From Methanosarcinales archaeon Met12 (GTDB taxonomy: Archaea > Halobacteriota > UBA148 > JAJOKI01), in contig CP017966.2 in the NCBI GenBank assembly GCA_002813105.2, positions 728,312 to 760,311 of the forward strand: a stretch of DNA of 32,000 nucleotides. Reading direction: 5' to 3'. The position numbers and the translations under genes are program-made. The notes below the pieces were generated by a model. It was not told the DNA's origin and did no database searches. It saw nothing but the letters and a program-made list of their open reading frames with translations. Shown here piece after piece: positions 16,038 through 28,696 of the stretch (the first letter of the stretch is position 1; each line of letters opens with the position of its first letter).

Positions 16038-16849
16038 GCGTGGTCGTATCCGCACCGCCACACATCAAAGAAGGTGCATCAGCCAAAAAAATGGTGTGGG
16101 ACGTGATTATTGCGTTGCTTCCTGCAGTAGCAGCGTCGGTGCACTTTTTCGGGCTCCAGGCACTGACCATCATCTCGACAAGCGTATTGGCGGCGGTTTG
16201 TACAGATGGCATTATTCAAAAAATGCGTTTGAAAAAGGTGACCATTACAGATGGCAGCGCCGTGGTCACTGGATTGCTGTTAGCACTGCTTCTCCCATCG
16301 AATGTGCCGTTGTGGGTCCCCATCGTCGGAGCATTCGTCGCCGTGGCAATTGCAAAACACGCCTTCGGGGGTTACGGCTCCAATATATTCAATCCTGCGC
16401 TGGTAGGATGGGCATTTTTGACCATGGCATGGCCCATGCACATGGCAATGGATGTCGCAAGACTGGCGGATATACCGCCAGTTGTGTTGTTGGTCTGTGC
16501 GGTATTTTTATTTTTGTTGAACAGGGGATACATTAAGTGGCAAATCTCCGCAGCCTATCTGATAACCACTGTATCGCTGATGGCACTATTCACCATAGAT
16601 ATTTCCCGCATCTTCATCGGCATCTTCATACTTGGCGTATTCTTCATGGCCACCGACCCTGTGACGACCCCTGTAACTAAAAAAGGCAGGTTTGTTTTCG
16701 GGATCGGATGTGGGATATTGACGGTGATATACGGGTTATATGGCAGTTACGCTGAAGGTGTGGGTTACTCAATATTATTGATGAACTCTGTTACGCCATT
16801 GATAGATAGATTTACAAGGCCAAAGCCACTTCGGGAGGATAAACCATGA
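16034..16849 (+). CDS. rnfD: Rnf complex subunit D (short form)
   Basis: 271 aa. SAPPHIK, GGYGSNIFNPALVGWAF, FFMATDPVTTP and YSILLMNSVTPLID are RnfD/NqrB blocks. Confidence 0.85.
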   Translation: MSVVVSAPPHIKEGASAKKMVWDVIIALLPAVAASVHFFGLQALTIISTSVLAAVCTDGIIQKMRLKKVTITDGSAVVTGLLLALLLPSNVPLWVPIVGAFVAVAIAKHAFGGYGSNIFNPALVGWAFLTMAWPMHMAMDVARLADIPPVVLLVCAVFLFLLNRGYIKWQISAAYLITTVSLMALFTIDISRIFIGIFILGVFFMATDPVTTPVTKKGRFVFGIGCGILTVIYGLYGSYAEGVGYSILLMNSVTPLIDRFTRPKPLREDKP

Positions 16850-17367
16850 GGGAAGCAATGGGAACGATAGTGAGATTGACCCTCATCACAATGATAGCTG
16901 CAGGCGCATTAGGCATAACCCACGAAATAACGGAAATGCATATTGCAGTCAATAACGAACTTGAGATAATATTCTCAGAGCTTATGCCGGGAGCTGTCCA
17001 GTTTAGACCTGTGCTCGATATGGACAATGAAATAATTTATTTTAAGGCATACGACGATGGAGGAATGCTGATTGGATATGCCTTTGTTTCGAGTAGGGAG
17101 GGATATTCTGGTCCTATAAAAGTCGCTGGAGTGATTGATTTGAACTACCGGGTCGTTGCTACGACGATTATAAAACAGACTGAAAATCCAGGGCTTGGAG
17201 ATAGAATAACAGCGCCTCAGTTTCTGAATCAATTCGCCGGCATATCTGCAGAAGAATTGCACTTATCGCCATATGGCGAGATCGATGCCATTACGGGCGC
17301 CACCATATCCTCTCAGGCGGTTGTAGATGCCATAAGGGAAAAAATAATGGAAATCGAGAGGCGATGA
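16846..17367 (+). CDS. rnfG: Rnf complex subunit G (FMN-binding)
   Basis: 173 aa with an N-terminal TM helix. TENPGLG and the flavinylation motif DAITGATISS are present. Confidence 0.85.
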   Translation: MREAMGTIVRLTLITMIAAGALGITHEITEMHIAVNNELEIIFSELMPGAVQFRPVLDMDNEIIYFKAYDDGGMLIGYAFVSSREGYSGPIKVAGVIDLNYRVVATTIIKQTENPGLGDRITAPQFLNQFAGISAEELHLSPYGEIDAITGATISSQAVVDAIREKIMEIERR

Positions 17368-17368
17368 C

Positions 17369-17971
17369 ATGAGCGAAAAAAGCTACGCGCACGAATTCAA
17401 AAAGGGCATACTAAAAGACAATCCAGTTCTTTGTTTATTGCTTGGCTTGTGCCCGTCATTGGCAGTGTCCACCTCCATAGAGCTTGCGCTTGGTATGGGT
17501 GCCGCCGTTATTTTCGTGCTGACGGCGTCCAACCTCATCATCTCCCTATTGCGAAGGCAAATTCCTGTTGTAGTGAGGCTTCCGTCGTTCATCGTGGTCA
17601 TCGCCACCTTCGTCACCATTGTGGATATGACGATGTCGGCATTTCTGCCGCCACTGCACAGAGCACTGGGCATATATCTCCCACTGATCGTGGTGAATTG
17701 TATAGTCCTCGGCAGGGCAGAGGTATTTGCATCGAGGAACCCGCCAGCGCTGTCCACGATAGATGGTTTGGGGATGGGCGTGGGATTCACGCTTGCACTG
17801 ACGTTAATTGGAGGCATCAGAGAGTTGTTCGGCACGGGGGAGATATTTTTTATGGGACACACCCTCCTGCAGGTCAATATTGAGCCTGCCGTGCTCATGA
17901 TACTCGCACCAGGGGCATTCTTCGTGATTGGTTTGCTCCTCTGGTTGATCAATCTATTAAAAGACAGGTGA
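17369..17971 (+). CDS. rnfE: Rnf complex subunit E
   Basis: 200 aa polytopic protein. NPVLCLLLGLCPSLAVS and IYLPLIVVNCIVLGRAE are RnfE/NqrD signatures. Confidence 0.9.
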   Translation: MSEKSYAHEFKKGILKDNPVLCLLLGLCPSLAVSTSIELALGMGAAVIFVLTASNLIISLLRRQIPVVVRLPSFIVVIATFVTIVDMTMSAFLPPLHRALGIYLPLIVVNCIVLGRAEVFASRNPPALSTIDGLGMGVGFTLALTLIGGIRELFGTGEIFFMGHTLLQVNIEPAVLMILAPGAFFVIGLLLWLINLLKDR

Positions 17972-17977
17972 TTAAAA

Positions 17978-18556
17978 ATGGAGAACATACTCGCTATAAT
18001 ACTGGGTGCAATTTTTATTAACAATTTTGTTTTGACCAAATTCCTTGGATTGTGCCCTCTTTTTGGGGTGAGCAAGGATACCAAAAGCGCTGTGGGAATG
18101 TCGCTCGCGGTCATCTTCGTCATGACGCTTGCCACAGCGGCTACATGGCTCATTTATACCTATATGTTGACTCCATTGAACATCAGATTCCTACAAACGA
18201 TATCCTTCATCCTGATAATCGCCACATTGGTTCAGTTGATTGAACTCATCATCAGGAAACACAGTCCACCATTGTACCGGTCGTTGGGGATATATCTACC
18301 CTTAATAACGACCAACTGCGCAGTATTGGGGGCTGTACTGCTAAACATCAGAGGAGGGTATTCCTTCGTTGAAGGTATCGTGTTCGGCACCAGTTCCGGT
18401 GTTGGATTTGGCATGGTACTACTGATTATGTCGGGAATACGGGAGAGGCTGGAGCTATCCGATGTTCCTAAATCTTTAGAAGGCGTGCCCCTCGCGTTTA
18501 TCACCGTCGGGATACTGTCCATCATATTCGTGAGCTTTTTCGGGGGTCTATTATGA
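17978..18556 (+). CDS. rnfA: Rnf complex subunit A
   Basis: 192 aa polytopic protein. NNFVLTKFLGLCPLFGVS and IYLPLITTNCAVLG are RnfA/NqrE signatures. Confidence 0.9.
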   Translation: MENILAIILGAIFINNFVLTKFLGLCPLFGVSKDTKSAVGMSLAVIFVMTLATAATWLIYTYMLTPLNIRFLQTISFILIIATLVQLIELIIRKHSPPLYRSLGIYLPLITTNCAVLGAVLLNIRGGYSFVEGIVFGTSSGVGFGMVLLIMSGIRERLELSDVPKSLEGVPLAFITVGILSIIFVSFFGGLL

Positions 18557-19350
18557 TGAGCGGATTGATAATAAACGCGATAATCGCATTGAGTGTGTTG
18601 GGGATTATATGTAGTGCTGTTTTAGTATGGGCTGCTAAGAAATTCGCGGTTATGACGGACCCACGGGTGGAAAAAGTATTGGAGGTCCTGCCAGGTATAA
18701 ACTGCGGCGCCTGTGGATTCCCATCATGTTATGATTATGCAGAGCAAGCGGTCAGTGGAAAGGCCGCGGTTGGTCTCTGCACCCCTGGTGGGGAAGAGGT
18801 GGCAGAGAAAATGGGAAACATCCTTGGAGTATCCATAGGGGAAATGGGGAGAAGGGTTGCACTTCTTCAATGCGCTGGCGGCATAAGGTCTGACGATAAA
18901 TTTCAGTATGATGGTGTGAAGAGCTGCAGGGCCGCTGCGTTAATAAAAGGGGGCGGAAAAGCCTGTGCATATAATTGTTTAGGATACGGTGACTGTGCAA
19001 ATGTGTGCCCTGTCGATGCGATTACAATCGGCGAGGATGGCCTGCCCATGATAGATGAACAAGTGTGTGTTGGATGTGATTTGTGCGTCGACGTGTGCCC
19101 AAAAGACATTTTGACGGTGATTAGCAGGGATAAACAAACTCATGTACTGTGTTCGTCGCGCGACAAGGGGGAGTACGTAAGGAGTATTTGTGAAGTGGGT
19201 TGTATCGGATGTGGCATTTGCGTAAAGGTATGTCCTTTCAAGGCAATAACGATTAAAGACAATCTGGCCGTAATCGATTCAGAGTTATGCACTGATTGCG
19301 GCATATGTGTTGAGAAATGTCCCCAGAAATGTATCAAATCGAGGGTATAA
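18553..19350 (+). CDS. rnfB: Rnf complex subunit B (polyferredoxin)
   Basis: 265 aa with an N-terminal TM helix. It has LPGINCGACGFPSCYDYA plus several CxxCxxCxxxCP clusters. Confidence 0.9.
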   Translation: MMSGLIINAIIALSVLGIICSAVLVWAAKKFAVMTDPRVEKVLEVLPGINCGACGFPSCYDYAEQAVSGKAAVGLCTPGGEEVAEKMGNILGVSIGEMGRRVALLQCAGGIRSDDKFQYDGVKSCRAAALIKGGGKACAYNCLGYGDCANVCPVDAITIGEDGLPMIDEQVCVGCDLCVDVCPKDILTVISRDKQTHVLCSSRDKGEYVRSICEVGCIGCGICVKVCPFKAITIKDNLAVIDSELCTDCGICVEKCPQKCIKSRV

Positions 19351-19355
19351 TAGCT

Positions 19356-20303
19356 ATGAAATCGATTAGTAGAAGGCAGTTTATAAAGGGAGGTGTTGCC
19401 ATTGCAATGACGTTTTTAATGGGCAGCAAGCTCCGACTGTATGGAATTGGCGAGGAATCGCCGCACGTAATAGAGGGCACGCGCAACATAATGGGTACAT
19501 CTGTGGCGGCAAGCATAATACATCATGATGTGGATGTGGCGAAAGAGGCGATGGCCCTTGCCTTCAACGAAATGTATAAAATCGATGACCTGATGAGCGT
19601 CTACAGGGCAAACAGCGAGGTTAGAAGCCTTAACGAAAGTGGGTTTTATGAGGGTGCGAGCGCTGACACCATACGGGTCATCGAGAGGGCGAATCATTAC
19701 TCCAGGCTGAGTGGCGGCGCATTTGCCATCACTGTTTTGCCCATCATGACAGGTATTCGATTTACCAGAAGCACGTTGGAACTGGCCAATTACGAGAACC
19801 TTCTCATCGGGAATGGTAACATCGGGTTCAAAAAGGCAGGTATGGGCATAACGTTGGGAGGAATTGCGAAAGGATACGCCGTGGATAGGGCGATCGAGGT
19901 TTTAAGGCAGAACGGTATAGAACGCGCCCTGATAAATGCGGGCGGCGACATCAGGACCATCGGCGGCAGGACCGCAGAAGTGCCATGGAGAATTGCCTTA
20001 CGAGACCCAGACAACAGGAAGGAGCGCGTCACCGTCATCGAGCTTTGCGATAAAGCAATTGCGACCAGCGGAAACTATGAGAGATTCCATATCGTGAACG
20101 CCAGGACAGGGTGCGTTGCCCAAGAAATGATGAGCGCAACCGTGATTGCTGAAAATGCGATGGATGCTGATGCGCTGTCCACCACCATATTTTTGCTTGG
20201 AGTGGAAAAGGGCATGGAACTGGTGGAGAGGCTGAGTGGTGTAGAGGCGCTGGTGATAACGAACGATAGAAGAATATTGAGGTCAAGCGGGTTTCAGTAT
20301 TGA
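19356..20303 (+). CDS. apbE: FAD:protein FMN transferase (ApbE family) with twin-arginine signal
   Basis: MKSISRRQFIKGGVAIAM is a Tat-type signal, and GGIAKGYAVDRA is the ApbE block. The start is chosen at Met14 of the ORF (19356), just after the rnfB stop at 19350. Confidence 0.85.
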   Translation: MKSISRRQFIKGGVAIAMTFLMGSKLRLYGIGEESPHVIEGTRNIMGTSVAASIIHHDVDVAKEAMALAFNEMYKIDDLMSVYRANSEVRSLNESGFYEGASADTIRVIERANHYSRLSGGAFAITVLPIMTGIRFTRSTLELANYENLLIGNGNIGFKKAGMGITLGGIAKGYAVDRAIEVLRQNGIERALINAGGDIRTIGGRTAEVPWRIALRDPDNRKERVTVIELCDKAIATSGNYERFHIVNARTGCVAQEMMSATVIAENAMDADALSTTIFLLGVEKGMELVERLSGVEALVITNDRRILRSSGFQY

Positions 20304-20321
20304 TAAACCTGAAAATGACCA

Positions 20322-20462
20322 ATGTCATGGCGGAGACATGCTAGAATGGAAGCCAGAGAAGGAGCGGATTATAGATATGAATACTCTGCAGAGATCGCGA
20401 AGGACATTATAGAGACAGCAGAGAAATTTATAGGAAGGATGAAGGTTTTCAAGATGTCCTGA
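20322..20462 (+). pseudogene. internally deleted HEPN-domain remnant
   Basis: The 46-aa ORF MSWRRHARMEAREGADYRYEYSAEIAKDIIETAEKFIGRMKVFKMS resembles the extreme N-terminus (MSW, as in the intact HEPN gene at 21781) joined to the C-terminal ..RY....Y..eeA......Ae.Fi helix of HEPN proteins. No nucleotidyltransferase partner is present. Confidence 0.3.
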
Positions 20463-20463
20463 T

Positions 20464-20548
20464 AACGTTTAATCGCTGGACGAATAGAATACGATGAAGA
20501 GCGAAACTATCCAATGATGTTTGTGGAAGGATGATGTGAAAAAGGATT
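20464..20548. repeat. junction repeat, diverged copy D
   Basis: AACGTTTAATCGC...GATGAAGAGCGAAAC...AAGGATGATGTGAAAAAGG resembles the AAAACGTTTAAWGCC / GGATGATGGGCAAAAGAGCG parts of copies A-C. Confidence 0.35.
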
Positions 20549-20573
20549 AGAGAGATAAAAAGTTTAAATATTG

Positions 20574-20587
20574 TATACTATAGTATA
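20574..20587. promoter_or_regulatory. perfect 14-bp palindrome (putative RHH antitoxin operator) downstream of a TATA box
   Basis: TATACTATAGTATA starts 4 nt after TTTAAATA (20563-20570) and ends 18 nt upstream of the antitoxin ATG at 20606. Confidence 0.4.
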
Positions 20588-20605
20588 AACTATGAGGAGA
20601 TAATC

Positions 20606-20800
20606 ATGGAAGCAATTCCCGCCAAACTAACGCATAAGTTGATCATAGAATTGGATGAACTGGTCAAGGACGGCTGGTATTCCAATAGAAGTGAAGCCAT
20701 AAGAGATGCCGTTCGCAAGTTAATTGAAAAGAGGAAATTGGAGATCCTGGAAGAGGCTATCGAAGAGGATATTAGATGGGGTTTGTATGGCAAGGACTAA
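20606..20800 (+). CDS. ribbon-helix-helix (CopG-like) antitoxin
   Basis: 64 aa. LDELVKDGWYSNRSEAIRDAVRKLI is a classic RHH motif. The gene overlaps the downstream toxin gene by 14 nt. Confidence 0.75.
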   Translation: MEAIPAKLTHKLIIELDELVKDGWYSNRSEAIRDAVRKLIEKRKLEILEEAIEEDIRWGLYGKD

Positions 20801-21278
20801 GGCGGTTTCTGATACTGGTCCAATCATCCATTTGAATGAGATCGACTGTTTAGATGTCCTAAAGCTTTTCGATGTGGTCATACCTCTGGAAGTGGAAAGT
20901 GAAGTTAAGAATATGGGAATACTCTTCAAAGTAAAAACTCAAAGGCTTACGAAAAAAGAAAAGAACAGGGCAGCCATGTTAGTCAGAAAGTATGGTATAG
21001 ATTTGGGAGAAGCGACAGCTATTGCCTTGGCTGAGCATAGTGGAATAAAACTGTTTTTCACCGATGATTTAGATGCCAGACTTGTAGCCGACCGATTTAA
21101 TTTAGAGCCCCATGGTTCAGTAGGTATCCTTTTGAGAGCGTTCAGAGAGGGAATTTTAACGAAGGAAGAAGTTGAGAAAAAGGTAACAGAATTGGAAACG
21201 GGAAGCTCTCTGTTTATCACCCATGATCTTGTTAGGGAGACTATCAGAGAAATTGAAAGATATGAAAAATTGGAATAA
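20787..21278 (+). CDS. PIN-like nucleic-acid-binding toxin (DUF3368 / COG2405 type)
   Basis: MARTKAVSDTGPIIHLNEIDCLDVL...FFTDDLDARLVADRFNLEPHGSVGILLRA matches the DUF3368 pattern. ATG 20787 is preferred over the longer ORF starting at 20724. Confidence 0.75.
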   Translation: MARTKAVSDTGPIIHLNEIDCLDVLKLFDVVIPLEVESEVKNMGILFKVKTQRLTKKEKNRAAMLVRKYGIDLGEATAIALAEHSGIKLFFTDDLDARLVADRFNLEPHGSVGILLRAFREGILTKEEVEKKVTELETGSSLFITHDLVRETIREIERYEKLE

Positions 21279-21287
21279 ACCAATCAG

Positions 21288-21360
21288 AAAACGTTTAAAG
21301 CCTAAAAACGATAAGGTCATGGTAAGATGATGAGCAAGACGAGCTAAGTTGATCGTTGAG
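21288..21360. repeat. junction repeat, copy A
   Basis: AAAACGTTTAAAGCCTAAAAACGATAAGGTCATGGTAAGATGATGAGCAAGACGAGCTAAGTTGATCGTTGAG begins 10 nt after the toxin stop. Its 3' core overlaps the stop of the minus-strand HEPN gene. Confidence 0.7.
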
Positions 21361-21781
21361 ATAGATTCATACTATTATATCTTGTTCGTAACTGATTGAT
21401 GAGTGAAAAGATCTCAGCTATAAATTCCTTTCCTGTTTTTACATCAAGCGTCTTTCCATAATAATTGATCTTGTTTCTTATCTTCCTGAATTTATCAAAT
21501 TTTTCAGAAAGCGTTTCCATACCCATATAATCCTCGAGGAAATATGTCACGCATTTATGGGAATATACCTTGAATCCCTCTGATGTTATGATGGCCTGAA
21601 CGACCTCTAGTAGTGCCTGATATGCTTCACTTACTAAAATTGCAGAATTTTCTTCTGTCAATCGGATATTCTCGATAAATTTGATCCTGGCGTCTGCCAT
21701 GCCTTGTAGTGATTTCGCTCTTTGCTTGTCCACAAATGAGTGTCTGGCATCACCGGACTCCAAACAATCCTGCCAACTCAC
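21344..21781 (-). CDS. HEPN-domain toxin partner of the upstream nucleotidyltransferase
   Basis: 145 aa, all-helical, with FRKIRNKINYYG (R-x4-like HEPN motif region). It has a 4-nt overlap with the MNT gene. Confidence 0.7.
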   Translation of the reverse strand: MSWQDCLESGDARHSFVDKQRAKSLQGMADARIKFIENIRLTEENSAILVSEAYQALLEVVQAIITSEGFKVYSHKCVTYFLEDYMGMETLSEKFDKFRKIRNKINYYGKTLDVKTGKEFIAEIFSLINQLRTRYNSMNLSQRST

Positions 21782-22314
21782 CTAAACACCTCTAACTGAC
21801 CTGAAATTACGATGCCATTCAATATGTTGTTCACCAATTCTGGGCTTTGCTTTTTTACTCTTTCAAACCCCTCTTTATCCATGACCAATTGCTGTATGCT
21901 TCTATTCATTTTTTTTTCAAAATCAGAAACATCCACTTCTTTTTTCTTTTCCGTTAGCACGAAGATGTCAACATCGCTTTTTTTCATGTCTTTTCCCCTG
22001 GCAGCAGAACCAAAGAGGATTATCGTCGGATATAGAAATTCCTCTTCTAAAAAAGAAATGAATCCCGTATCTTTGAGGCGTTGGATCATGTGAGATATCT
22101 TATAATCCCTGAATTTTTCTGACTCTTGGTCCCCCCGATATAGTAGATAGCCTCTTTCCTTTTTTTCCAATAAGAACTTCTCTGCCACCAATTCAGTTAA
22201 ATATTTCTTTGCAGTCCTAGGAGATATGTCCAATAACCTTGCAATTTCTCTAAGATGGAACCATTGACCTGGATCTTCAATGAATATTTCAAGTATGTTT
22301 AGTTTTTTACACAC
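21778..22314 (-). CDS. winged-helix + minimal nucleotidyltransferase (MNT) antitoxin
   Basis: 178 aa. FHLREIARLLDISPRTAKKYLTELV is an HTH, and LFGSAARGKDMKKSDVDIFV is the GSxxRG..SDxD NTase motif. The start codon is GTG. Confidence 0.85.
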   Translation of the reverse strand: MCKKLNILEIFIEDPGQWFHLREIARLLDISPRTAKKYLTELVAEKFLLEKKERGYLLYRGDQESEKFRDYKISHMIQRLKDTGFISFLEEEFLYPTIILFGSAARGKDMKKSDVDIFVLTEKKKEVDVSDFEKKMNRSIQQLVMDKEGFERVKKQSPELVNNILNGIVISGQLEVFR

Positions 22315-22316
22315 AC

Positions 22317-22332
22317 GTTTACTTTTGTAAAC
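22317..22332. promoter_or_regulatory. palindrome between the TATA box and start of the wHTH-MNT gene (putative auto-operator)
   Basis: GTTTAC-TTTT-GTAAAC lies immediately upstream of the GTG start. On the minus strand it is preceded by AATATTTAAAC. Confidence 0.35.
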
Positions 22333-22550
22333 ACCTGTTTAAATATTTTTCTCTGTATTTTCACATAAGCAACCCATCAGAAGTTTAGGAAAAAAGAGTG
22401 ATAAAATATGGTGAAATGGTGCCTTACACAATAACTTACAATTTACACGTTTCAAAAAGCAAGAAATGGCTAACGCTGAAAATAGATAGCACCATCATGA
22501 ATTTTGTCGATAACTTTAAATAATGCCGCTCTTACTATTAATTGTCGGTG

Positions 22551-22805
22551 ATGACTATGGCAACCACAAAGATCAGAGCGGACTGGAGGGTGACGATCCC
22601 GTCTTCTATCAGAGATAAATTTGGGCTGACGATCGGTAAAGAAGTGATATTTGTGGATGAAGACGACAGGCTCGTTCTGGTTTCAGTCAAGGAATATGAA
22701 AATCCCACAAAGGCACTGGAAGGAAGCGTGAAAGGAGTCATAGATCATCCGAAACAATTCGCTAGGAGCCACATCAGGTCTAAGCTATTGAGGGAGCACG
22801 AATGA
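22551..22805 (+). CDS. vapB: AbrB/SpoVT-family antitoxin
   Basis: TKIRADWRVTIPSSIRDKFGLTIGKEVIF is the AbrB swapped-hairpin motif. It has a 4-nt overlap with the PIN gene. The start is ambiguous (22542, 22551 or 22557). Confidence 0.75.
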   Translation: MTMATTKIRADWRVTIPSSIRDKFGLTIGKEVIFVDEDDRLVLVSVKEYENPTKALEGSVKGVIDHPKQFARSHIRSKLLREHE

Positions 22806-23200
22806 GGTTTGTTGACACCAACGTCTTCATCTATCACATTACTGCTCACAAAAAATTTGGCGGAGTTGCAAAGAAAATACTCCAGAGGATAGAGGACGGC
22901 GAGCAGGCGATAACATCGATGGTGGTCTTGCAAGAAGTCGCATGGGTATTAGAGGCGATGGGTGAGCAAAACAAGATAAAAGAAACCCTAGAAAGAATCT
23001 TCTCTTATAAAACGTTGGGAGTCAAGGGAATTGATGAGAAAAATTTGATCCAAGGCTGCTATTACATGAACAGCTATCGTGTCGATTTCAATGATGGAGT
23101 GAATATCTCAGTGATGAGAGCCCATGACGTTAGCGAGGTATATTCGAACGACCAAAAACATCTCGGAAAAGTTGAATTTCTAGACCTGGTCTTTGAGTAG
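22802..23200 (+). CDS. vapC: PIN-domain ribonuclease toxin
   Basis: 132 aa. MRFVDTNVFIY, LQEV and the C-terminal SND acidic positions fit a VapC PIN domain. Confidence 0.85.
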   Translation: MRFVDTNVFIYHITAHKKFGGVAKKILQRIEDGEQAITSMVVLQEVAWVLEAMGEQNKIKETLERIFSYKTLGVKGIDEKNLIQGCYYMNSYRVDFNDGVNISVMRAHDVSEVYSNDQKHLGKVEFLDLVFE

Positions 23201-23233
23201 CTTGGGGGGCTTACAAAATTGAGCTCTAGAAGA

Positions 23234-23401
23234 ATGGACAAAAGAAGGACTAAGTTGGCCGTTGGATTAGCATTATTCTTGGTGTTAAGTTCACTTTCTT
23301 ATGGAGCCACCTCTACAGAACAAATCACAACAATCCTGAATCCCGAGAAATACCCAAGTCTCAGAGAGATGGACAAGTTTGTCCTTAACTCAACAATTTA
23401 A
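23234..23401 (+). CDS. small signal-peptide ORF (possibly a 5' gene fragment); its first ~33 nt are junction-repeat copy F
   Basis: The product MDKRRTKLAVGLALFLVLSSLSYGATSTEQ... has a basic n-region and a hydrophobic h-region. ATGGACAAAAGAAGGACTAAGTTGGCCGTTGGA aligns to the ATG...AAAAGAGC...CTAAGTTGATYGTTG core of repeats A-C. Confidence 0.3.
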   Translation: MDKRRTKLAVGLALFLVLSSLSYGATSTEQITTILNPEKYPSLREMDKFVLNSTI

Positions 23402-23438
23402 GTAATAAAACACACTTAGAACATAGGAAGGTGGAAAA

Positions 23439-23651
23439 ATGAAGGTTGAGATAGAGGAGATACAAGGATTAAAAACGAAAGTTGAATCCCTAGAGGCAGA
23501 GGTCTTGGTTATGCGGAGGACATTGGGCGTCAAAACAGAAAAAAAAGATGAAAAAGCCTGGAAGGAGCTTGAGAAACTTGGAAAAAGCATTAGTAAAGGT
23601 TGGACGAGTAAAAAGCCGAGTTGGAAACTAATTTCCGAATCAAGGAGATAG
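23439..23651 (+). CDS. putative antitoxin (coiled-coil, VapB-like)
   Basis: 70 aa, Lys/Glu-rich and helical. It ends 1 nt before the PIN gene, and GGAAGGTGG lies upstream of the ATG. Confidence 0.55.
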   Translation: MKVEIEEIQGLKTKVESLEAEVLVMRRTLGVKTEKKDEKAWKELEKLGKSISKGWTSKKPSWKLISESRR

Positions 23652-23652
23652 G

Positions 23653-24075
23653 ATGTATTGCATCGATGCAAGTGTGATGGTGAATTCATTTATCGAAGGG
23701 GAGAAATTCCACGAATTTAGTAAGAGATTGATGGAAAAGATCAGGATGGACGAAAGAATGGTCGTCGTTCCTGAGATTGTTTTACCAGAAGTTGCATCTG
23801 CCGTGTCCAGAGGTACCAATAACCCCAAAATATCTCTGAAATTTGTTACCGAATTGAGAGAAGTACCCAACTTCATATTCATTCCCATCGACGCTGAGCT
23901 CTCTAATCTATCATGTAAATTTGCTGCTGAAAACAAGCTAAGAGGCTGTGATGCCATCTATGTGGCGGTTAGCTGCATGTTCAAATCTAAACTAATAACC
24001 TTGGATGAGGAGCAGAAGGAAAGAGCTTCTAATGTCATTGAAGCTTTAACACCTAGGGAAGAATTAGAGTTATAA
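23653..24075 (+). CDS. vapC: PIN-domain ribonuclease toxin
   Basis: 140 aa. MYCIDASV, VVPEIVLPEV, GCDAIYVA and LITLDE are PIN acidic-residue blocks. Confidence 0.85.
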   Translation: MYCIDASVMVNSFIEGEKFHEFSKRLMEKIRMDERMVVVPEIVLPEVASAVSRGTNNPKISLKFVTELREVPNFIFIPIDAELSNLSCKFAAENKLRGCDAIYVAVSCMFKSKLITLDEEQKERASNVIEALTPREELEL

Positions 24076-24177
24076 AAACTTTAACCACTCTATAGTCATA
24101 AAAGACAGGGAGAGAAAAAAATGGTTTGGGTGAAAGATGACTAAAAGAGCAAATGGAAGGGTTAAGTTGATCGTTGG
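24073..24177. repeat. junction repeat, copy B (with internal insertion)
   Basis: TAAAAACTTTAACC...TAGTCATAAAAG...GATGACTAAAAGAGCAAATGGAAGGGTTAAGTTGATCGTTGGG starts at the toxin stop codon. Confidence 0.65.
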
Positions 24178-24230
24178 GCAGTACCGAAAGTTTTAATATT
24201 CTACAAGTAGAGAATTCTACCAGTGGTAAA

Positions 24231-24497
24231 ATGCAAGAATTGAAAAGCGTTAAAATGAAGTCGGCTGAGCTGAGTGAAATAAAAAAGATCCATGCTCATC
24301 TAAAGTCTGAGGGAGTGAACATCCCGCTATATGAGCTGATCTCTAAGTCGGTGAAATACATGATCGCCAACTTTCCTGAGTTCGAGGAGATGATGTTATC
24401 GAAAAAGAGCGTCTGGGACATAGTAACTCCGGTTAAAGGCATGGGTAAGGTCAAGTCAACGAAAGTTGATGAAGAACTCTACGGTAGATCGGCATGA
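24231..24497 (+). CDS. putative antitoxin of unknown family
   Basis: About 88 aa from ATG 24231 (the ORF is open from 24174). It has an ATGA overlap with the PIN gene. No family was recognised by eye. Confidence 0.5.
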   Translation: MQELKSVKMKSAELSEIKKIHAHLKSEGVNIPLYELISKSVKYMIANFPEFEEMMLSKKSVWDIVTPVKGMGKVKSTKVDEELYGRSA

Positions 24498-24895
24498 TTT
24501 TCATCGATACCACCTTTTGGTTTGCCCATATCGTAGAGACCGATGACATGCACCAAAATGCATTGGATGAAGAGGATAACATCAAGAGCGGGAGATACGG
24601 CAGACCGGTCACAAGCGATTACGTGTTGGATGAGTTAGCTACTTTGCTTAGAAGGGAGATAGAGACAAAAAGAGTGCATGAAAAAATCCTGGGGATCTTG
24701 GCAGCTCCAGACATAGATGTCATTTTCATAGGGCCTGCCCTTTTTAGCGAAGGGCTGAAAATCCTCAGAGAAGACGATAGACGAAAGTTTAGCATGACCG
24801 ATGCGACTTCTGTCGCGCTCATGTTGAGCAAGAAGATTGATACGATTGCCAGTTTTGATGACCATTTCACCAGATATGTAAACGTGATTCCATAA
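24494..24895 (+). CDS. vapC: PIN-domain ribonuclease toxin
   Basis: 133 aa. MIFIDTTFW, TSDYVLDEL, SMTDATSVA and ASFDDHF are PIN blocks. Confidence 0.85.
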   Translation: MIFIDTTFWFAHIVETDDMHQNALDEEDNIKSGRYGRPVTSDYVLDELATLLRREIETKRVHEKILGILAAPDIDVIFIGPALFSEGLKILREDDRRKFSMTDATSVALMLSKKIDTIASFDDHFTRYVNVIP

Positions 24896-24978
24896 AAACG
24901 TTTAATGCCTTAAAACGACAATGTCATAAAGGATGATGGGCAAAAGAGCGGAAAAACGGGCTAAGTTGATTGTTGAAC
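24895..24978. repeat. junction repeat, copy C (longest)
   Basis: AAAACGTTTAATGCCTTAAAACGACAATGTCATAAAGGATGATGGGCAAAAGAGCGGAAAAACGGGCTAAGTTGATTGTTGAAC starts at the toxin stop and ends where MinD homology begins. Confidence 0.7.
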
Positions 24979-25290
24979 AACACGCTAAAAATGATAAAAA
25001 TGGCAGAGAAAAATGGCATCCCTGTCAAAGGAATCATATTAAACAGGGTGATGGGCAGAGGATATGAACCATCTATTGCTGAAGTTGATTCTGTTTGCGA
25101 TGCACCCGTGGTCGCTGTCATCCCTGAAGATGTTGATGTCAGAAGGAGCATATCTGATATGAATCCTGTCGTGTTGAACGCTCCATATTCCCCTGCTGCC
25201 GTCGAATTCAAGAAACTGGCCGCCCGCTTGATTGGAAAAGAATACAAGGTTGAATTGTGGGACAGGGTAAGGCAATTCCTTAGGTTCTAG
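24970..25290 (+). pseudogene. 3' fragment of an archaeal MinD/ParA-family ATPase gene (no P-loop half)
   Basis: LKMIKMAEKNGIPVKGIILNRV...VVAVIPEDVDVRRSISDMNPVVLNAPYSPAAVEFKKLAARLIG matches only the C-terminal ~100 aa of MinD. A TGA sits immediately upstream in frame, and no GKGGxGKT-coding sequence is nearby. Confidence 0.6.
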
Positions 25291-25346
25291 GCACCATACG
25301 CCATTGCTTACAAGATTTATCCCTTTTGAATGATGAAACAATAGTG

Positions 25347-25850
25347 ATGAACAGAATTGCCATAACAGGTCCGCCAAGAATTGGAAAGACCACGATATGT
25401 AGGAGAGTCATAGATTCTCTGGGCTGCAGAGTCGGAGGAATGAGCACTTCAGAAATCAGAGACGGCGATAGAATTGGATTTCAGATTATGGATTTGATGA
25501 CTGGCATGGTTGGCACGCTTGCACATGTTCATGGAGCAGGTCCAAGGATTGGAAAATATCATGTCAACCTGGCAGATTTAGACAACATCGGCGCAAAGGC
25601 CATCGAATGCTCAATAGACGCAGAGCGGATTGTCATCGATGAGATAGGACCGATGGAATTGAAGTCCGAGAGATTTGTCAGAGCTGTGGAGATGGCGCTG
25701 AACTCAAACAAACCCATGCTGGTTACATTGCATCAGCGGTCAAGACATTCCCTTGCGGAGCGCATTAGGTCCGAGTTTGAGGTGAGGGAGATAACCAAGG
25801 AGAATAGGGACAGGATCGTCTACGAGATTACCGAAAAACTAAAAACATAA
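25347..25850 (+). CDS. nucleoside-triphosphatase, THEP1/NTPCR family
   Basis: MNRIAITGPPRIGKTT (P-loop) and VIDEIGPMEL (Walker B), with a size of ~167 aa. ATG 25347 is preferred over TTG 25326. Confidence 0.85.
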   Translation: MNRIAITGPPRIGKTTICRRVIDSLGCRVGGMSTSEIRDGDRIGFQIMDLMTGMVGTLAHVHGAGPRIGKYHVNLADLDNIGAKAIECSIDAERIVIDEIGPMELKSERFVRAVEMALNSNKPMLVTLHQRSRHSLAERIRSEFEVREITKENRDRIVYEITEKLKT

Positions 25851-25894
25851 GTTTAAATATCACCCCTTCCTAATACATCTACGGTGTATGTTTT

Positions 25895-26092
25895 ATGGTG
25901 AAAACTACTGTGATTCTAAAGGATGAAATACACGAGATATTGGTTGAGAGATTCGGAAGAAGAAAGATATCCGAAACCATCAACAAGATTCTCGAAAAGA
26001 ACCTGTTCAGGACGAAAAAAAGCATGTTCGGCATCGACCCCTGGCTCACCACCGAAGGACTTAGAGATGAGGAGGAGCATGAAGGTCTTTGA
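25895..26092 (+). CDS. vapB: VapB-type antitoxin
   Basis: 65 aa. KTTVILKDEIHEILVERFGRRKISETINKIL is RHH-like. It overlaps the PIN gene by 14 nt. Confidence 0.7.
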   Translation: MVKTTVILKDEIHEILVERFGRRKISETINKILEKNLFRTKKSMFGIDPWLTTEGLRDEEEHEGL

Positions 26093-26441
26093 CTCCTTTG
26101 CATGGATAGAGTACTTTGCCGGCACTGAATGTGGAATGAAAGTAAAGAAAGTCATCGACGATGTGGAGATAATTTATACGCCTTCTGTCTGTCTTACTGA
26201 GTTCAAGGCGAAGTATCTAAGGGAGGGAAGAGATCCTAGTAAGAGGGTTAATTTTATGGAAAATAGAAGTGTCATCACACCGATCGACAAGGAGATTGCG
26301 TTAAAGGCTGCAGATATGAAGATTGAGTATAAATTGCATACTATCGATGCCTTGATATACGCAACGGCATCGGTCAAGAGAGGCAAGCTTATAACTGGAG
26401 ATGCACACTTTAAGGATTTACCAAACACAATGATGATTTGA
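26079..26441 (+). CDS. vapC: PIN-domain ribonuclease toxin
   Basis: MKVFDSFAWIEYF..., TIDALIYATA and ITGDAHF are PIN blocks. GAGGAGGAG lies just upstream of ATG 26079. Confidence 0.85.
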   Translation: MKVFDSFAWIEYFAGTECGMKVKKVIDDVEIIYTPSVCLTEFKAKYLREGRDPSKRVNFMENRSVITPIDKEIALKAADMKIEYKLHTIDALIYATASVKRGKLITGDAHFKDLPNTMMI

Positions 26442-26445
26442 GTCC

Positions 26446-27570
26446 ATGCAAACCGAGATAATTCAGGAAGGCAGCACAAAAATCATGGTCCCTATATTGG
26501 ATAAAGAGGTGAACTATCCTCCATCCAGCGCATCAGTATTCTACAATCCAAAGATGGAATTGAACAGGGATATCAGCGTTGCATGTGTTGGGGCATTTGC
26601 CAGAAAGCAGGATACATATATAGACGTGCTCGGAGCTACGGGTATTATGGGCACGAGGATGGCGAATGAAGTCGGTTTTAAAAAAGTAGTAATAAACGAC
26701 TGGAACCCCAGGGCATATGAATTGATCAAGAGAAATATCGAACAGAATCAGTTGAATGCCATGGCGCAGAATAAAAATGCGAACGTACTTCTATCTGAGT
26801 CTCATTTTGATATAGTAGACGTAGACCCGTTTGGCACTCCGATACCATTTTTAGATTCTGCCTGCCGTTCGGTGAAAAAAATGCTCTGCATAACTGCTAC
26901 GGACACGGCACCTTTGTGTGGCGCCCACAAGGCATCAGGCATCCGAAAATATGGTGCCATCCCCCTCAAGACGGAATATCATCCAGAGATGGGCGTACGC
27001 ATCCTTCTGAGTGCAATTGCCAGAAATCTGGCGAGATATGACAAATCGATGTCGCCTTTATTATCCTATGCCATGGAGCACTATGTTAGAGTTTATTTGG
27101 CTGTGGAAAAGGGCGCCGCAAAGTCAAATGAAATGATGAAGCAAGTGGGTTTTATATGCCATTGTTTTGGCTGCGGCTTTAGAAGTTGGAAGTATGGCTT
27201 AACGGTTTCCATGCCAGAAAAGTGTCCTTCTTGCGCTGAGCACATACCACTGGCAGGCCCTCTCTGGCTGGGGAACTTACACGACAAAAAATTTTGTGAC
27301 ATGGTTCTACGTGAACTTGAGCATAGGAAATTGGGCACACGACAAACAGCGATAAAACTCGTGCGATTGTGCGCTGAAGAACAGGAGATTCCCACTTTTT
27401 ATGACCAACACGTGATGTGCAAAAAACTGAAAATCAATCCACCGCCGATAGGGTCGACGATATCTGCATTATGCGATGCTGGTTTTAAGGCATCGAGGAC
27501 TCATTTTTCAGGCACGTCATTCAAGACGAATGCCCCGCTGGAGGAGATCGAAAGAATCCTTTGCAGATGA
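26446..27570 (+). CDS. trm1: tRNA (guanine26-N2)-dimethyltransferase
   Basis: 374 aa. VFYNPKMELNRDISV, VDVDPFGTP and the C-terminal Cys4 finger CHCFGCG...CPSC are Trm1 hallmarks. Confidence 0.9.
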   Translation: MQTEIIQEGSTKIMVPILDKEVNYPPSSASVFYNPKMELNRDISVACVGAFARKQDTYIDVLGATGIMGTRMANEVGFKKVVINDWNPRAYELIKRNIEQNQLNAMAQNKNANVLLSESHFDIVDVDPFGTPIPFLDSACRSVKKMLCITATDTAPLCGAHKASGIRKYGAIPLKTEYHPEMGVRILLSAIARNLARYDKSMSPLLSYAMEHYVRVYLAVEKGAAKSNEMMKQVGFICHCFGCGFRSWKYGLTVSMPEKCPSCAEHIPLAGPLWLGNLHDKKFCDMVLRELEHRKLGTRQTAIKLVRLCAEEQEIPTFYDQHVMCKKLKINPPPIGSTISALCDAGFKASRTHFSGTSFKTNAPLEEIERILCR

Positions 27571-28129
27571 TATATATCTCAGCACTCTCCTTCCTGGATG
27601 CCAGCGGGGTATATGGTTTTACAAAGCCGAAATATTTCCTGACATCATTAAAGAAGTCCGAGAACATGTCGCCTTGAAATACCTTCACCACAAAATTTCC
27701 ACCAGGTTTGAGTATCTCTACGGCAATATTCAACGCAGAATTGGATAAGTCGATAGAGCGTGCATGGTCCAGACTCCAGTTGCCTGAGAGGTTTGGCGCC
27801 ATATCAGAGATGACCACATCTGCGCCGCCTGTCTTCTCGATAATCCCCTTGATTTTTTCAATCATGGCAGGGTTGGTCACGTCTCCCCCGAGAGTTTCCA
27901 CTCCTTCGAGGGGGGCGATTTTTTGGATATCGATGCCCAGGACAAAACCGCCAGATACCTCCTTTGCAACCTGGAGCCATCCCCCTGGAGCGGCACCAAG
28001 ATCGACCACTGTAGCGCCCCTCTTGATTAGCTTGAACTTATCATTGATCTGCTGGAGTTTGTACGAAGCCCTGGATCGATATCCATCTCTTCTCGCTTTA
28101 TGGTAAAAATGGTCTTTACGGCGCGGCAT
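27521..28129 (-). CDS. rlmE: 23S rRNA (uridine-2'-O)-methyltransferase RlmE/FtsJ
   Basis: 202 aa. YRSRASYKL, VVDLGAAPGGW, VISDMAPN and the VVKVFQG motifs are present. Confidence 0.9.
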   Translation of the reverse strand: MPRRKDHFYHKARRDGYRSRASYKLQQINDKFKLIKRGATVVDLGAAPGGWLQVAKEVSGGFVLGIDIQKIAPLEGVETLGGDVTNPAMIEKIKGIIEKTGGADVVISDMAPNLSGNWSLDHARSIDLSNSALNIAVEILKPGGNFVVKVFQGDMFSDFFNDVRKYFGFVKPYTPLASRKESAEIYIICKGFFRSPPAGHSS

Positions 28130-28178
28130 AGATTAAATAAGTGTAACTATGGTGATTTTAAGTTTATGGAGTTCATCA

Positions 28179-28299
28179 TGCTCCGGTCGGGATTTGAACC
28201 CGAGTCTTCGGCTTTCTTCGCCCTTTTTGGTCAAGCTTTTTGCTTGCAAAAAGGTTGCTCGAAAGGCCGGAATGATTGGCCGGACTACACTACCGGAGC
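28179..28299 (-). tRNA. tRNA-Glu(UUC) with a 46-nt canonical (37/38) intron
   Basis: The minus strand reads GCTCCGG-TA-GTGTAGTCCGGCCAATCAT-T-CCGGC-CTTTCG / intron / A-GCCGA-AGAC-TCGGG-TTCAAAT-CCCGA-CCGGAGC-A. A bulge-helix-bulge can be drawn (CUUU pairs with GAAG, with 3-nt bulges at both junctions). There is one C-A mismatch at 27:43. Confidence 0.85.
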
Positions 28300-28331
28300 A
28301 AAGGTTTTGATATATTTTATCGGTGAACCTA

Positions 28332-28696
28332 TGGGCCCGATGCGATTTGAACGCATGACCGCTCGGTGTCTCCCACCAACCTGCAAACAGGTTGATCATT
28401 TGACCCGTTTTCGCTCCGCTTCAACGAGTCGCGCCGTTCCAACCTGCAAACAGGTTGATCATTTGACCCGTTTTCGCTCTGCTTCAACGAGTCGCGCCGT
28501 TCCAACCTGCAAACAGGAGTCTCTACTTCGTAGAGACCCTCTCACTGCAGAGCGGTGAGCAGGTTGATCATATCTCTTTATGTTTGGTCCTACTGAGCGA
28601 GCATATGTGAGCGAATGTAGGACGTTTTTGTTCAAACTTTTTATTAAAAAGTTTGGTTATGAGCCGAGCGCTCTAACCAGACTAAGCTACGGGCCC
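28332..28696 (-). tRNA. tRNA with CAU anticodon (Met or Ile2) interrupted by a ~290-nt intron at 37/38
   Basis: Exon 1 (28696-28658) is GGGCCCG-TA-GCTT-AGTCTGGTTA-GAGC-G-CTCGG-CTCATA. Exon 2 (28367-28332) is A-CCGAG-CGGTC-ATGCG-TTCAAAT-CGCAT-CGGGCCC-A. All four stems pair perfectly once 28368-28657 is removed. A TATA-like AATATAT lies 10-20 nt upstream, with the same spacing as for tRNA-Glu. Confidence 0.75.
28376..28517. repeat. 63-nt tandem direct repeat, 2 full copies + 16-nt partial third copy, inside the tRNA intron
   Basis: The units start at 28376, 28439 and 28502. The two full units differ at one position (ctccgcttc vs ctctgcttc). A further 12-nt echo (caggttgatcat) lies at 28560-28571. 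Confidence 0.9.

Follow-up and report, generated by a model that had tools for sequence, protein, structure and literature searches.

The stretch examined here, 32,000 nucleotides of the chromosome of Methanosarcinales archaeon Met12 (contig CP017966.2, positions 728,312 to 760,311; hereafter the window), carries between the housekeeping genes apbE and trm1 an islet of six toxin–antitoxin (TA) gene pairs, most of whose borders bear copies of one junction repeat. Met12 is represented by a circular metagenome-assembled genome (MAG) of 1,067,436 bp from The Cedars serpentinising springs; it has been placed in Methanocellales, as a non-methanogenic member, and has the smallest genome among the methanogen orders (PMC11176372). 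Its Trm1 protein and the one encoded in the window are identical. An 18.7-kb Logan contig matches window positions 16446-28404 exactly, and the islet is therefore not one project's assembly artefact. A preliminary description, made from the letters and open reading frames (ORFs) alone, had seen here six TA pairs in DNA that looked richer in A+T than its flanks. The gene content was borne out by a Pfam scan and by the Met12 gene table, the GC content, now computed, is 0.40 in the islet against 0.467 in the remaining window, and re-reading confirmed that start and stop codons overlap by 4 or 14 nt, with a single gap of 1 nt. The features are listed below with their window positions; BRE denotes the B recognition element of an archaeal promoter, smORF the small ORF and wHTH a winged helix-turn-helix.

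19317-20303, plus strand: apbE, left housekeeping flank, at the end of the Rnf cluster (Pfam ApbE, E 5.5e-65)
20309-20331, plus strand: partial repeat (AAAATGACCAATGTCATGG) adjoining the apbE stop codon; by eye, some 20 of its 23 positions agree with the middle part of the promoter-bearing copies
20322-20462, plus strand: chimeric gene stub, in which 20327-20363 is the 5' end of a DUF4258 toxin gene
20484-20540, plus strand: 3' remnant of a DHNA-family (PF04038) gene fused to a THEP1 start (ATGATG); 84% over 58 nt to L161 9454-9511
20606-20800 and 20787-21278, plus strand: cassette 1, RHH antitoxin and DUF3368/PIN-like toxin (Pfam RHH_8/RHH_1, DUF3368, PIN)
21286-21359, plus strand: repeat copy A, promoter-bearing, short frameshifted form; BRE/TATA AAAACGTTTAAAGCC, ATGATG, core GCTAAGTTGATCGTTGA; nhmmer score 74
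21344-21781 and 21778-22314, minus strand: cassette 2, reversed, HEPN and wHTH-MNT (Pfam Polbeta/NTP_transf_2 and HTH)
22316-22382, plus strand: upstream extension of a promoter-bearing repeat; palindrome GTTTAC-TTTT-GTAAAC, TTTAAATA box, then TTTTCACATAAGCAACCCATCAG
22551-22805 and 22802-23200, plus strand: cassette 3, AbrB/MazE and PIN (Pfam)
23215-23229, plus strand: 15-nt stub, likely a HEPN gene 3' end (AAAATTGAGCTCTAG), between PIN3 and the smORF
23234-23401, plus strand: smORF, 55 aa (MDKRRTKLAVGLALFLVLSSLSYGA...), predicted small membrane protein whose N-terminus resembles a signal anchor; repeat copy E forms the first 32 nt
From 23439, and 23653-24075, plus strand: cassette 4, 70-aa antitoxin candidate and PIN (Pfam PIN)
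24073-24177, plus strand: repeat copy B; left part is the PIN4 3' flank, then ATGACTAAAAGAGC..., core GTTAAGTTGATCGTTGG
24231-24895, plus strand: cassette 5, 88-aa antitoxin candidate and PIN 24494-24895 (Pfam PIN)
24894-24976, plus strand: repeat copy C, promoter-bearing, long in-frame form; AAAACGTTTAATGCC ... ATGATGGGCAAAAGAGCGGAAAAACGG, core GCTAAGTTGATTGTTGA; nhmmer score 61
24970-25290, plus strand: 3' fragment of a MinD-type ATPase gene, residues ~143-233 of the MinD domain (Pfam CbiA/AAA_26)
25347-25850, plus strand: THEP1 NTPase (Pfam NTPase_1, E 5e-51)
25895-26441, plus strand: cassette 6, 65-aa antitoxin candidate and PIN 26079-26441 (Pfam PIN)
26446-27570, plus strand: trm1, right housekeeping flank (Pfam TRM, E 3.5e-112)

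All six cassettes show the layout of type II TA systems, namely small adjacent or overlapping gene pairs with a PIN, HEPN or DUF3368/PIN-like toxin. Four toxins match Pfam PIN with E values of 6e-16 to 2e-12 and one matches DUF3368 and PIN; the HEPN gene of cassette 2 gives a weak Pfam match (E 0.039) and is an arCOG02123 HEPN in the Met12 gene table (PMC11176372). An antitoxin-type domain (RHH, AbrB/MazE, or MNT with wHTH) is present in pairs 1-3, while the 70-, 88- and 65-aa partners in pairs 4-6 match no Pfam family, and the toxin and antitoxin roles are predicted.

The 17-nt core of the repeat, GYTAAGTTGATYGTTGR, occurs in the 32 kb in three exact copies and one with three mismatches, all of them in the islet; under shuffling the mean count was 0.51 and none of 100 shuffles reached four, so that copies A, B and C are real. 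When the window was compared with itself by BLAST, copies A and C formed one of just two internal repeats (74% over 82 columns including 10 gap columns, E 4e-7). The reported position of the copies at or just after three toxin stop codons also held, since the repeat begins within the stop codons of PIN4 and PIN5 and 9 nt after that of toxin 1. The two weaker copies of the preliminary description fared differently. The one at 23234-23266 is indeed related to the repeat, but it is the true 5' end of the smORF and not a weak copy. The other, at 20464-20548 ('copy D'), was rejected as a repeat upon comparison with locus L161 (loci and contigs of other genomes carry L numbers throughout): it is a DHNA/THEP1 junction remnant, consisting mainly of the final 60 nt of the DHNA-family gene and the THEP1 start, in which just about 17 nt (TAACGTTTAAT...) are repeat-like. 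Two partial copies beyond the earlier list were found at 20309-20331 and 22316-22382. The latter was compared with L189 9375-9600, L189 12681-12836, L185 and L196, and the remainder of this copy has been deleted between two GTTTA motifs. Tandem Repeats Finder reported at 22295-22341, just upstream of the reversed MNT gene, a tandem 20-nt unit which holds the palindrome GTTTAC-TTTT-GTAAAC; the same palindrome lies ahead of the promoter-bearing repeats in L189, L185 and L196 and is a possible operator. The MinD fragment was considered as a source of the core (ILIVT against KLIV) and rejected, as the DNA alignment gave TGAAC microhomology alone.

Translated in frame, copies B, C and E give M-x-K-R-...-K-L-I/A-V-G/E, and E extends as a hydrophobic helix. 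The identity of the repeat became apparent in L196, a contig of 2.7 kb that comes from a close relative and has 92% identity in its piece of apbE. On this contig the palindrome, AAAACATTTAAAGCC, about 30 nt, ATGATG and the core follow one another and run unbroken into an intact smORF of 56 codons (MMYKRRAKLIVGIALFLILGLLTYGVLSTEQSITILNPKEYP...), followed by the cassette-4 antitoxin and PIN. The repeat therefore corresponds to the promoter and 5' end of the smORF, which is the likely source of all copies. The segment common to every copy, ATG..CAAAAGA..(0-12 nt)..GCTAAGTTGATCGTTGG, covers the first 12-18 codons (about 33-45 nt); the other copies are cut 0-30 nt past the core or are frameshifted, and the longest reach about 90 nt or more into the smORF. 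The smORF itself spans 52-60 aa, is predicted to be membrane-anchored and heads the cassette-4 operon. No homologue of it outside the arrays was found in 5.8 billion clustered proteins or 1.84 billion representatives; matches to giant repetitive proteins were spurious and were rejected, and no full-length 'target gene' exists beyond the arrays in these searches. The promoter-bearing copies hold a BRE/TATA-like AAAACGTTTAAW about 30 nt ahead of the ATG, a spacing which we take to suit a leaderless or near-leaderless archaeal transcript, and promoter activity is predicted for them. Copies A and C and the promoter-bearing copies of L189 and L185 precede unrelated cassettes, and we infer that they are active there. 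In published gene-level data the islet genes have in situ mRNA/DNA ratios of 0.6-2.3, with 0.77 for apbE, 1.12 for trm1 and 1.44 for the MinD fragment 3' of copy C (PMC11176372), which indicates that the array is transcribed; such data do not tell apart which promoters fire.

Outside the window, a strict pattern of the repeat gave 32 matches in 596 Gb of genomes, each species being represented by one. Three archaeal matches were examined, and L137 alone was real, with four copies in 8 kb of the related MAG Yes46-07; L125 and L127 were rejected as ORFs chancing to encode KLIVE, and the remaining matches were single and in unrelated, mostly bacterial genomes. A metagenome scan gave two further short array contigs, L174 and L185, and look-ups of exact proteins added L188, L189 (a longer version of L137), L190-L194, L196 and L199. 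With up to four mismatches allowed, 17 copies of the core were counted over seven loci (about 80 kb), every one of them in an array and on the array strand, with none on the opposite strand or in the housekeeping flanks of these loci. A scan of IMG/VR with the 16-nt core gave single-copy matches alone among the matches listed. The three strict-pattern matches in IMG/VR all lay within ORFs encoding AKLIVE/G, and a viral donor was rejected; BLAST of the islet against plasmids and phages gave no match.

The related MAGs and metagenome contigs carry about six other configurations of the array. Cassettes shared with the window are 88-92% identical at the nucleotide level; what differs is how they are ordered, how many there are and where on the chromosome they lie. 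The maps use R for a full repeat, r for a partial or degenerate one, a prime for a gene remnant and rev for a reversed cassette.

Met12: apbE, stubs, 1, R, rev 2, r, 3, R-smORF-4, R, 5, R, MinD'-THEP1-6, trm1
L196: apbE, R, rev 2, R-smORF-4, r, 6', trm1
L188: apbE, 3, R ...
L189, first half: ftsZ, tRNA-Asp ... rev x, 5, R, rev RHH-DUF3368, R, 3, r
L189, continued: rev ATPase, R, 7, R, DUF4258 pair, PIN4', R-smORF'-MNT-HEPN, R ...
L191, L174 and L192-L194: like L189 minus the reversed RHH-DUF3368 cassette and one repeat

Cassette 2 has its orthologue in L196 (89.6% nucleotide identity), where cassette 4 is also joined to the smORF as in the window (90.9% over window 23234-24146). Orthologues of cassette 3 (88-92%) stand beside other neighbours in L188, L189, L191 and L199, and so do those of cassette 5 (90-91.5%) in L137/L189, L174 and L191; further adjacencies are seen in L185 and L199. 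Cassettes 3, 4 and 5 run 3-4-5 in the window and 5-3-4' in L189, with others interspersed. The array lies 3' of apbE in L188 and L196 as well, and in L189 and L191 it adjoins ftsZ and tRNA-Asp instead. More distant relatives (Trm1 75-81% identical) have no array beside trm1; in L161 the order is DHNA-family gene, THEP1, trm1, and L159 (Trm1 77%) retains cassette 6. An identical islet in relatives, by which the preliminary description would have recognised an old duplication with no mobility, was not seen, for the comparison of apbE-trm1 synteny gave differing arrays or none. Its picture of a cassette array is supported, as the cassettes recur in relatives in different arrangements and most junctions there carry the repeat, and the reordered arrays likewise support its second hypothesis, that of a recombination hotspot for shuffling TA cassettes.

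These arrays also indicate where the junctions form. Across 10 kb of flank and cassettes, L189 and L191 share 96-97% identity, and L189 has about 1.1 kb extra, comprising the reversed RHH-DUF3368 cassette and a second repeat, between two direct repeats. At this site L191, L174 and L192-L194 have one chimeric repeat, which in L191 resembles the first L189 copy in its left part and the second in its right flank. More generally, the sequence left of the ATG tracks the upstream cassette: the PIN4 flank, which forms the left part of copy B, is found 3' of PIN4 in three of three arrays (the window, L189 and L196), and a HEPN-type stub follows PIN3 in four of four (the window, L188, L189 and L191). 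Past the core, the right-hand sequence tracks the downstream cassette, as seen for the cassette-5 leader (3/3) and for the end of reversed cassette 2 (2/2, the window and L196), and the smORF body is found with three different left contexts. Since each flank follows its own cassette, the crossovers fall within the ATG-to-core segment of about 40 nt. Not all junctions are of this kind. A deletion at GTTTA microhomology took out one repeat in the window, repeat B of L196 is fused in-gene to VapB6, the junctions in L185 and L199 include repeat-free ones, and the repeats have ragged edges, the promoter-bearing part beginning at several different points. The GTTTA deletion, the TGAAC microhomology and the stubs of DHNA, MinD, DUF4258, HEPN and PIN4 genes point to illegitimate events.

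Taking these observations together, we favour, with somewhat more confidence than doubt, the view that the islet is a variable TA cassette array shuffled by recombination within the repeats, probably of the general homologous kind, and supplemented by illegitimate replacement. Direct partial copies of the smORF 5' end at most cassette borders would serve as portable homology, and crossovers within them would delete, duplicate, insert and reorder cassettes, either by unequal exchange between copies or through an excised circle of one cassette and one repeat that re-inserts in Campbell fashion at another copy. New kinds of cassette would arrive by illegitimate recombination into existing ones and leave gene stubs behind. 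This reading unites the hotspot hypothesis with another of the preliminary hypotheses, segmental duplication followed by module replacement, which we judge partly right: the stubs at cassette borders uphold its module replacement. The absence of a site of known type, the ragged edges, the repeat-free junctions and the illegitimate events favour general homologous recombination, presumably of the RadA type, over a dedicated recombinase. Several points weigh against this reading. The homology amounts to just 35-80 nt or so at 75-90% identity, which is short for RadA-dependent exchange, and all informative crossovers fall in the one interval of about 40 nt that holds the best-conserved 17-nt core, a clustering that a site-specific system would give as well. 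Conservation of the core in frame-broken copies hints at a function at the DNA level. Cassettes 1, 3, 5 and 6 have TTTAAATA-like boxes of their own (read by eye; that of cassette 1 at about 20563), and the predicted repeat promoter is therefore dispensable for their expression. Deletions alone would also account for the indel between L189 and L191 and for the array of L196. Finally, the repeat scans took in the window and the loci of the relatives, and the rest of the Met12 chromosome may hold further repeat copies or a distant recombinase.

An integron-like site-specific system is the alternative that survives best, and we regard it as unlikely. An unlinked recombinase, e.g. the genome's one Xer-family integrase or an enzyme supplied in trans, would act on the ATG-to-core segment of about 35 nt; cassettes would be excised as circles and re-inserted at other copies, each junction being a hybrid site. 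The confinement of the crossovers and the core kept in frameshifted copies suit such a system, and so do the copies being all direct and array-only, the two toxin stops that overlap the repeat with the third 9 nt before it, as in integron cassettes, and a right end GTTRRRY in several copies (by eye). Arrays without a linked integrase (clusters of attC sites lacking integron integrases, CALINs) are moreover known in archaea (PMC9668308). The structural tests pointed the other way. When copies A, B and C were folded as DNA, neither strand gave an attC-like hairpin (z -0.3 to -2.0), the alignment fold of eight copies reached -5.6 kcal/mol with no compensatory pairs and no end-to-end helix, and no inverted repeats were found within A, B and C. 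The core GCTAAGTTGATCGTTGG shows no dyad symmetry and instead contains a direct GTTGAT/GTTGGA repeat (by eye), and Rfam gave no family across 20000-26600 at E values up to 1. The Pfam-scanned ORFs of at least 110 aa in the 32-kb window contained no domain of a recombinase or transposase, in agreement with the earlier statement that none is present there, nor was a recombinase found among the called genes around the L189 (15 kb) and L191 arrays; the Met12 gene table lists RadA, RadB and one 205-aa XerC/D-family gene (gene 1273), about 360 genes from the islet. An attC/integron assignment in the strict sense was accordingly rejected on the fold results and on there being no IntI found. The variable ends of the smORF fragments, the variable left edges of the promoter part, the several repeat-free junctions and the cassettes in both orientations, built as two-gene operons and in several cases with their own TATA-like boxes, also speak against an integron-like system, as does the want of any viral, plasmid or phage copy of the site in the scans made. 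The same evidence divides the first hypothesis of the preliminary description, which held that repeated site-specific integration each time duplicated the promoter and 5' end of a target gene: its identification of the repeat as a promoter and gene 5' end is right, as L196 shows, but the site-specific part finds neither an integrase in the window nor an attC fold or dyad, and meets variable ends and repeat-free junctions.

Rather unlikely, in our estimate, is the broader proposition of an archaeal cassette-exchange system not recognised before, which would be analogous to integrons but would work, through an unlinked recombinase or a recombination pathway of unusually short homology, on a site that is not palindromic, measures about 35 nt and lies where a small ORF begins, mobilising TA and defence cassettes among Met12-clade Methanocellales of serpentinising and subsurface waters.

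It is quite unlikely that the repeats are passive relics, by which we mean that one ancient tandem amplification of the smORF 5' end and a TA operon was followed by replacement and differential loss, the repeats being scars without a present role in cassette movement. Decay would account for the private substitutions in each of the four Met12 cores, deletion for the fusion of the left part of B to VapB6 in L196, for the GTTTA deletion in the window and for the difference between L191 and L189; the cassettes shared by the window and L196 are about 90-91% identical, next to 92% for the apbE flank, as vertical descent would have it, and gene stubs occur throughout. Deletion alone nevertheless yields neither a permuted order, 3-4-5 in the window and 5-3-4' in L189, nor arrays at two chromosomal places, one beside apbE and one beside ftsZ/tRNA-Asp, and five of the eight L189 cores are identical, which suggests recent exchange or conversion; these observations make passive descent less likely. 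The same smORF body stands with three left contexts, and PIN3-6 are very divergent (by eye) where the repeats are 75-90% alike, so the repeats are younger or have been homogenised. That the repeat is a generic promoter or leader family lying before many unrelated genes, of which the islet merely holds several, is highly improbable and largely refuted: promoter reuse before unrelated genes is documented (PMC3575422), AAAACGTTTAAW is similar to the BRE/TATA boxes read by eye in this genome and its 15-mer has seven matches with up to three mismatches in the window against 1.6 expected, some at other genes, but neither the core nor the ATG-to-core segment occurs in the remaining 26 kb of the window or in some 50 kb of the relatives' housekeeping flanks, all four strict matches of the related MAG lie in one array, the repeat contains coding sequence of one specific small ORF, and the genome-wide distribution that the preliminary description had named as contrary to an array was not borne out in the window and the seven loci scanned, where the copies are array-only.

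When compared with known systems, the islet shares with integrons and CALINs (Ghaly et al. 2022, PMC9668308) and with Vibrio superintegrons the tandem small cassettes, many of them TA, and the recurring direct element; content and order vary among relatives (the window, L196, L188, L189, L191, L185 and L199), and there is no linked integrase, as in CALINs. It differs in that attC sites have R''/L''-L'/R' inverted repeats and a hairpin, while the Met12 element has neither, has ragged ends and comes with no IntI found; its boundary is the 5' end of a protein gene with a promoter in some copies; and in place of single promoterless same-strand ORFs there are two-gene operons in both orientations, with at least one reversed per array. 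Acinetobacter plasmid dif (pdif) modules, which often are TA systems and travel from replicon to replicon, are likewise delimited by short recurring sites, and there the enzyme is XerC/XerD, a housekeeping enzyme encoded elsewhere (PMC6449649, PMC13141974). Those sites measure 28 bp, with a 6-bp spacer set between partly symmetric arms of 11 bp each, an arrangement that the core does not match, and they alternate in orientation, whereas the Met12 sites are asymmetric, 35-150 nt long and all direct (17 of 17 copies on one strand). Putative mobile promoters (PMC3575422) are similar in placing near-alike upstream sequence before non-homologous genes, and differ in that the Met12 copies are clustered in one array, include ORF codons, are mostly truncated or frameshifted and lie at recombination breakpoints. 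In tyrosine-integrase islands at tRNA or protein genes, too, direct repeats copying the end of a target gene flank each unit and serial events yield arrays; here, however, the units are of 0.7-1.3 kb, none has an integrase, the repeat is the 5' end of a small ORF and not a tRNA 3' end, and the edges vary; the gene-5'-end repeat resembles an att duplication only in form. A tRNA target was considered and rejected, as no tRNA lies in or next to the islet and the L189 and L191 arrays, though near tRNA-Asp, are on its 5' side. The layout thus works like an integron array or dif modules yet lacks the defining properties of both, and is best termed a repeat-scaffolded TA cassette array. In the surveys of Makarova, Wolf and Koonin, HEPN-MNT and PIN-AbrB/RHH pairs reportedly cluster in AT-rich variable islands beside conserved genes; to our knowledge, archaeal TA-rich islands have not been described as punctuated by one conserved junction element for the exchange of neighbours.

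Apart from integrons and plasmid dif modules, little is understood of how TA and defence modules are moved about and come to accumulate in islands. In the present series from closely related tiny genomes, cassettes have been gained, lost and reordered at a short repeat of neither the attC nor the dif type. If general recombination suffices, a duplicated gene start can make a locus a self-organising cassette platform; if a dedicated enzyme is involved, archaea would have a mobile-cassette system of a new kind. With the series of arrays at hand, data that already exist allow cassette exchange to be tested directly. The finding also bears on why a streamlined genome of 1.07 Mb retains about 6 kb of TA cassettes transcribed in situ. 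The Met12 gene table (Supplementary Data 5, PMC11176372) names 'PIN domain' 36 times and 'toxin' 41 times, which for so small a genome is a heavy load of TA genes, and the main text of that paper is silent on toxins, integrases and mobile elements.

The gene remnants at the cassette borders indicate that new modules were inserted within older ones. The stub at 20322-20462 had been taken for a HEPN remnant, an assignment that the searches did not bear out: its first 40 nt or so are the 5' end of a DUF4258 gene (20327-20363, 92% over 37 nt to the gene in L137/L185, with nine of nine amino acids, WRRHARMEA, matching) and the remainder has no Pfam match. The DHNA remnant at 20484-20540 has its intact counterpart in L161, where the DHNA-family gene abuts THEP1. 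The string AAAATTGAGCTCTAG at 23215-23229 is also the end of an intact HEPN gene in L189 (14929), where a repeat comes directly after it, and is found 3' of PIN3 in L188, L189 and L191 also; a HEPN 3' stub is the likely explanation, with homology read from a short string. The MinD fragment, which meets copy C at TGAAC, is 63% identical in amino acids to an 811-aa protein of L159. This MinD-domain protein bears a long repetitive C-terminal extension, and on the same contig a 75-aa ORF 5' of THEP1 (L159 4274-4501) is a MinD pseudogene fragment (…NPELPAITNSLKMIKVAK…). Three independent draft contigs (BBPE01000903.1 from NCBI, Logan DRR093102 and Logan SRR21423783) stop inside the MinD fragment of the window (25020, 25231) and not at the repeats; no paralogue accounting for these ends was found within the window, and population heterogeneity or a copy elsewhere in the genome may be the cause. 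Apparent differences in a second Cedars draft (L197) were considered as strain variation and rejected, being scaffolding N gaps.

THEP1 appears to be the ancestral neighbour of trm1, the two genes being adjacent in L159 and L161. Cassette 6, the borders of which lack the repeat, is seemingly an older resident; L159 matches it at 87% nucleotide identity across THEP1 to PIN6, and in L196 it is decayed. The THEP1 start region is duplicated locally at window 25318-25360 (TGATGAAACAATAG / TGATGAACAGAAT), and a third THEP1 ATGATG start lies 4.8 kb upstream, fused to the DHNA remnant (20527-20540). In the MAG GCA_021129915.1 (L195 32-1300) the first 35 or so THEP1 codons are fused in frame to trm1, the product having 422 aa, and cassette 6 is missing; throughout the clade, the DNA ahead of trm1 is prone to deletion. 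The Trm1 match at 86% belongs to another MAG and not to the L189 lineage. Beside the reversed ATPase_2 array gene, L192 3330-3877 and also L191 10900-10975 carry a frameshifted remnant of an IS5-like transposase (by eye).

Elsewhere in the window, Rfam reports one tRNA, at 28179-28299 on the minus strand (121 nt, 44 bits), which ARAGORN misses, presumably owing to an intron. It is the sole tRNA of the window, lies outside the islet and is about 80 nt from a tandem repeat at 28376-28517, between ftsJ and a CPxCG zinc-finger gene, which has a 63-nt unit in 2.3 copies that are 98% identical. An NCBI draft contig (L001) has about 154 nt extra at this place, and the copy number hence varies between assemblies. 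A cytochrome-c3-like gene at 1815-2639 (minus strand) contains an internal direct repeat of 64 nt (1886-1949 and 2375-2438, 78% identical), which probably reflects duplicated haem-binding modules.

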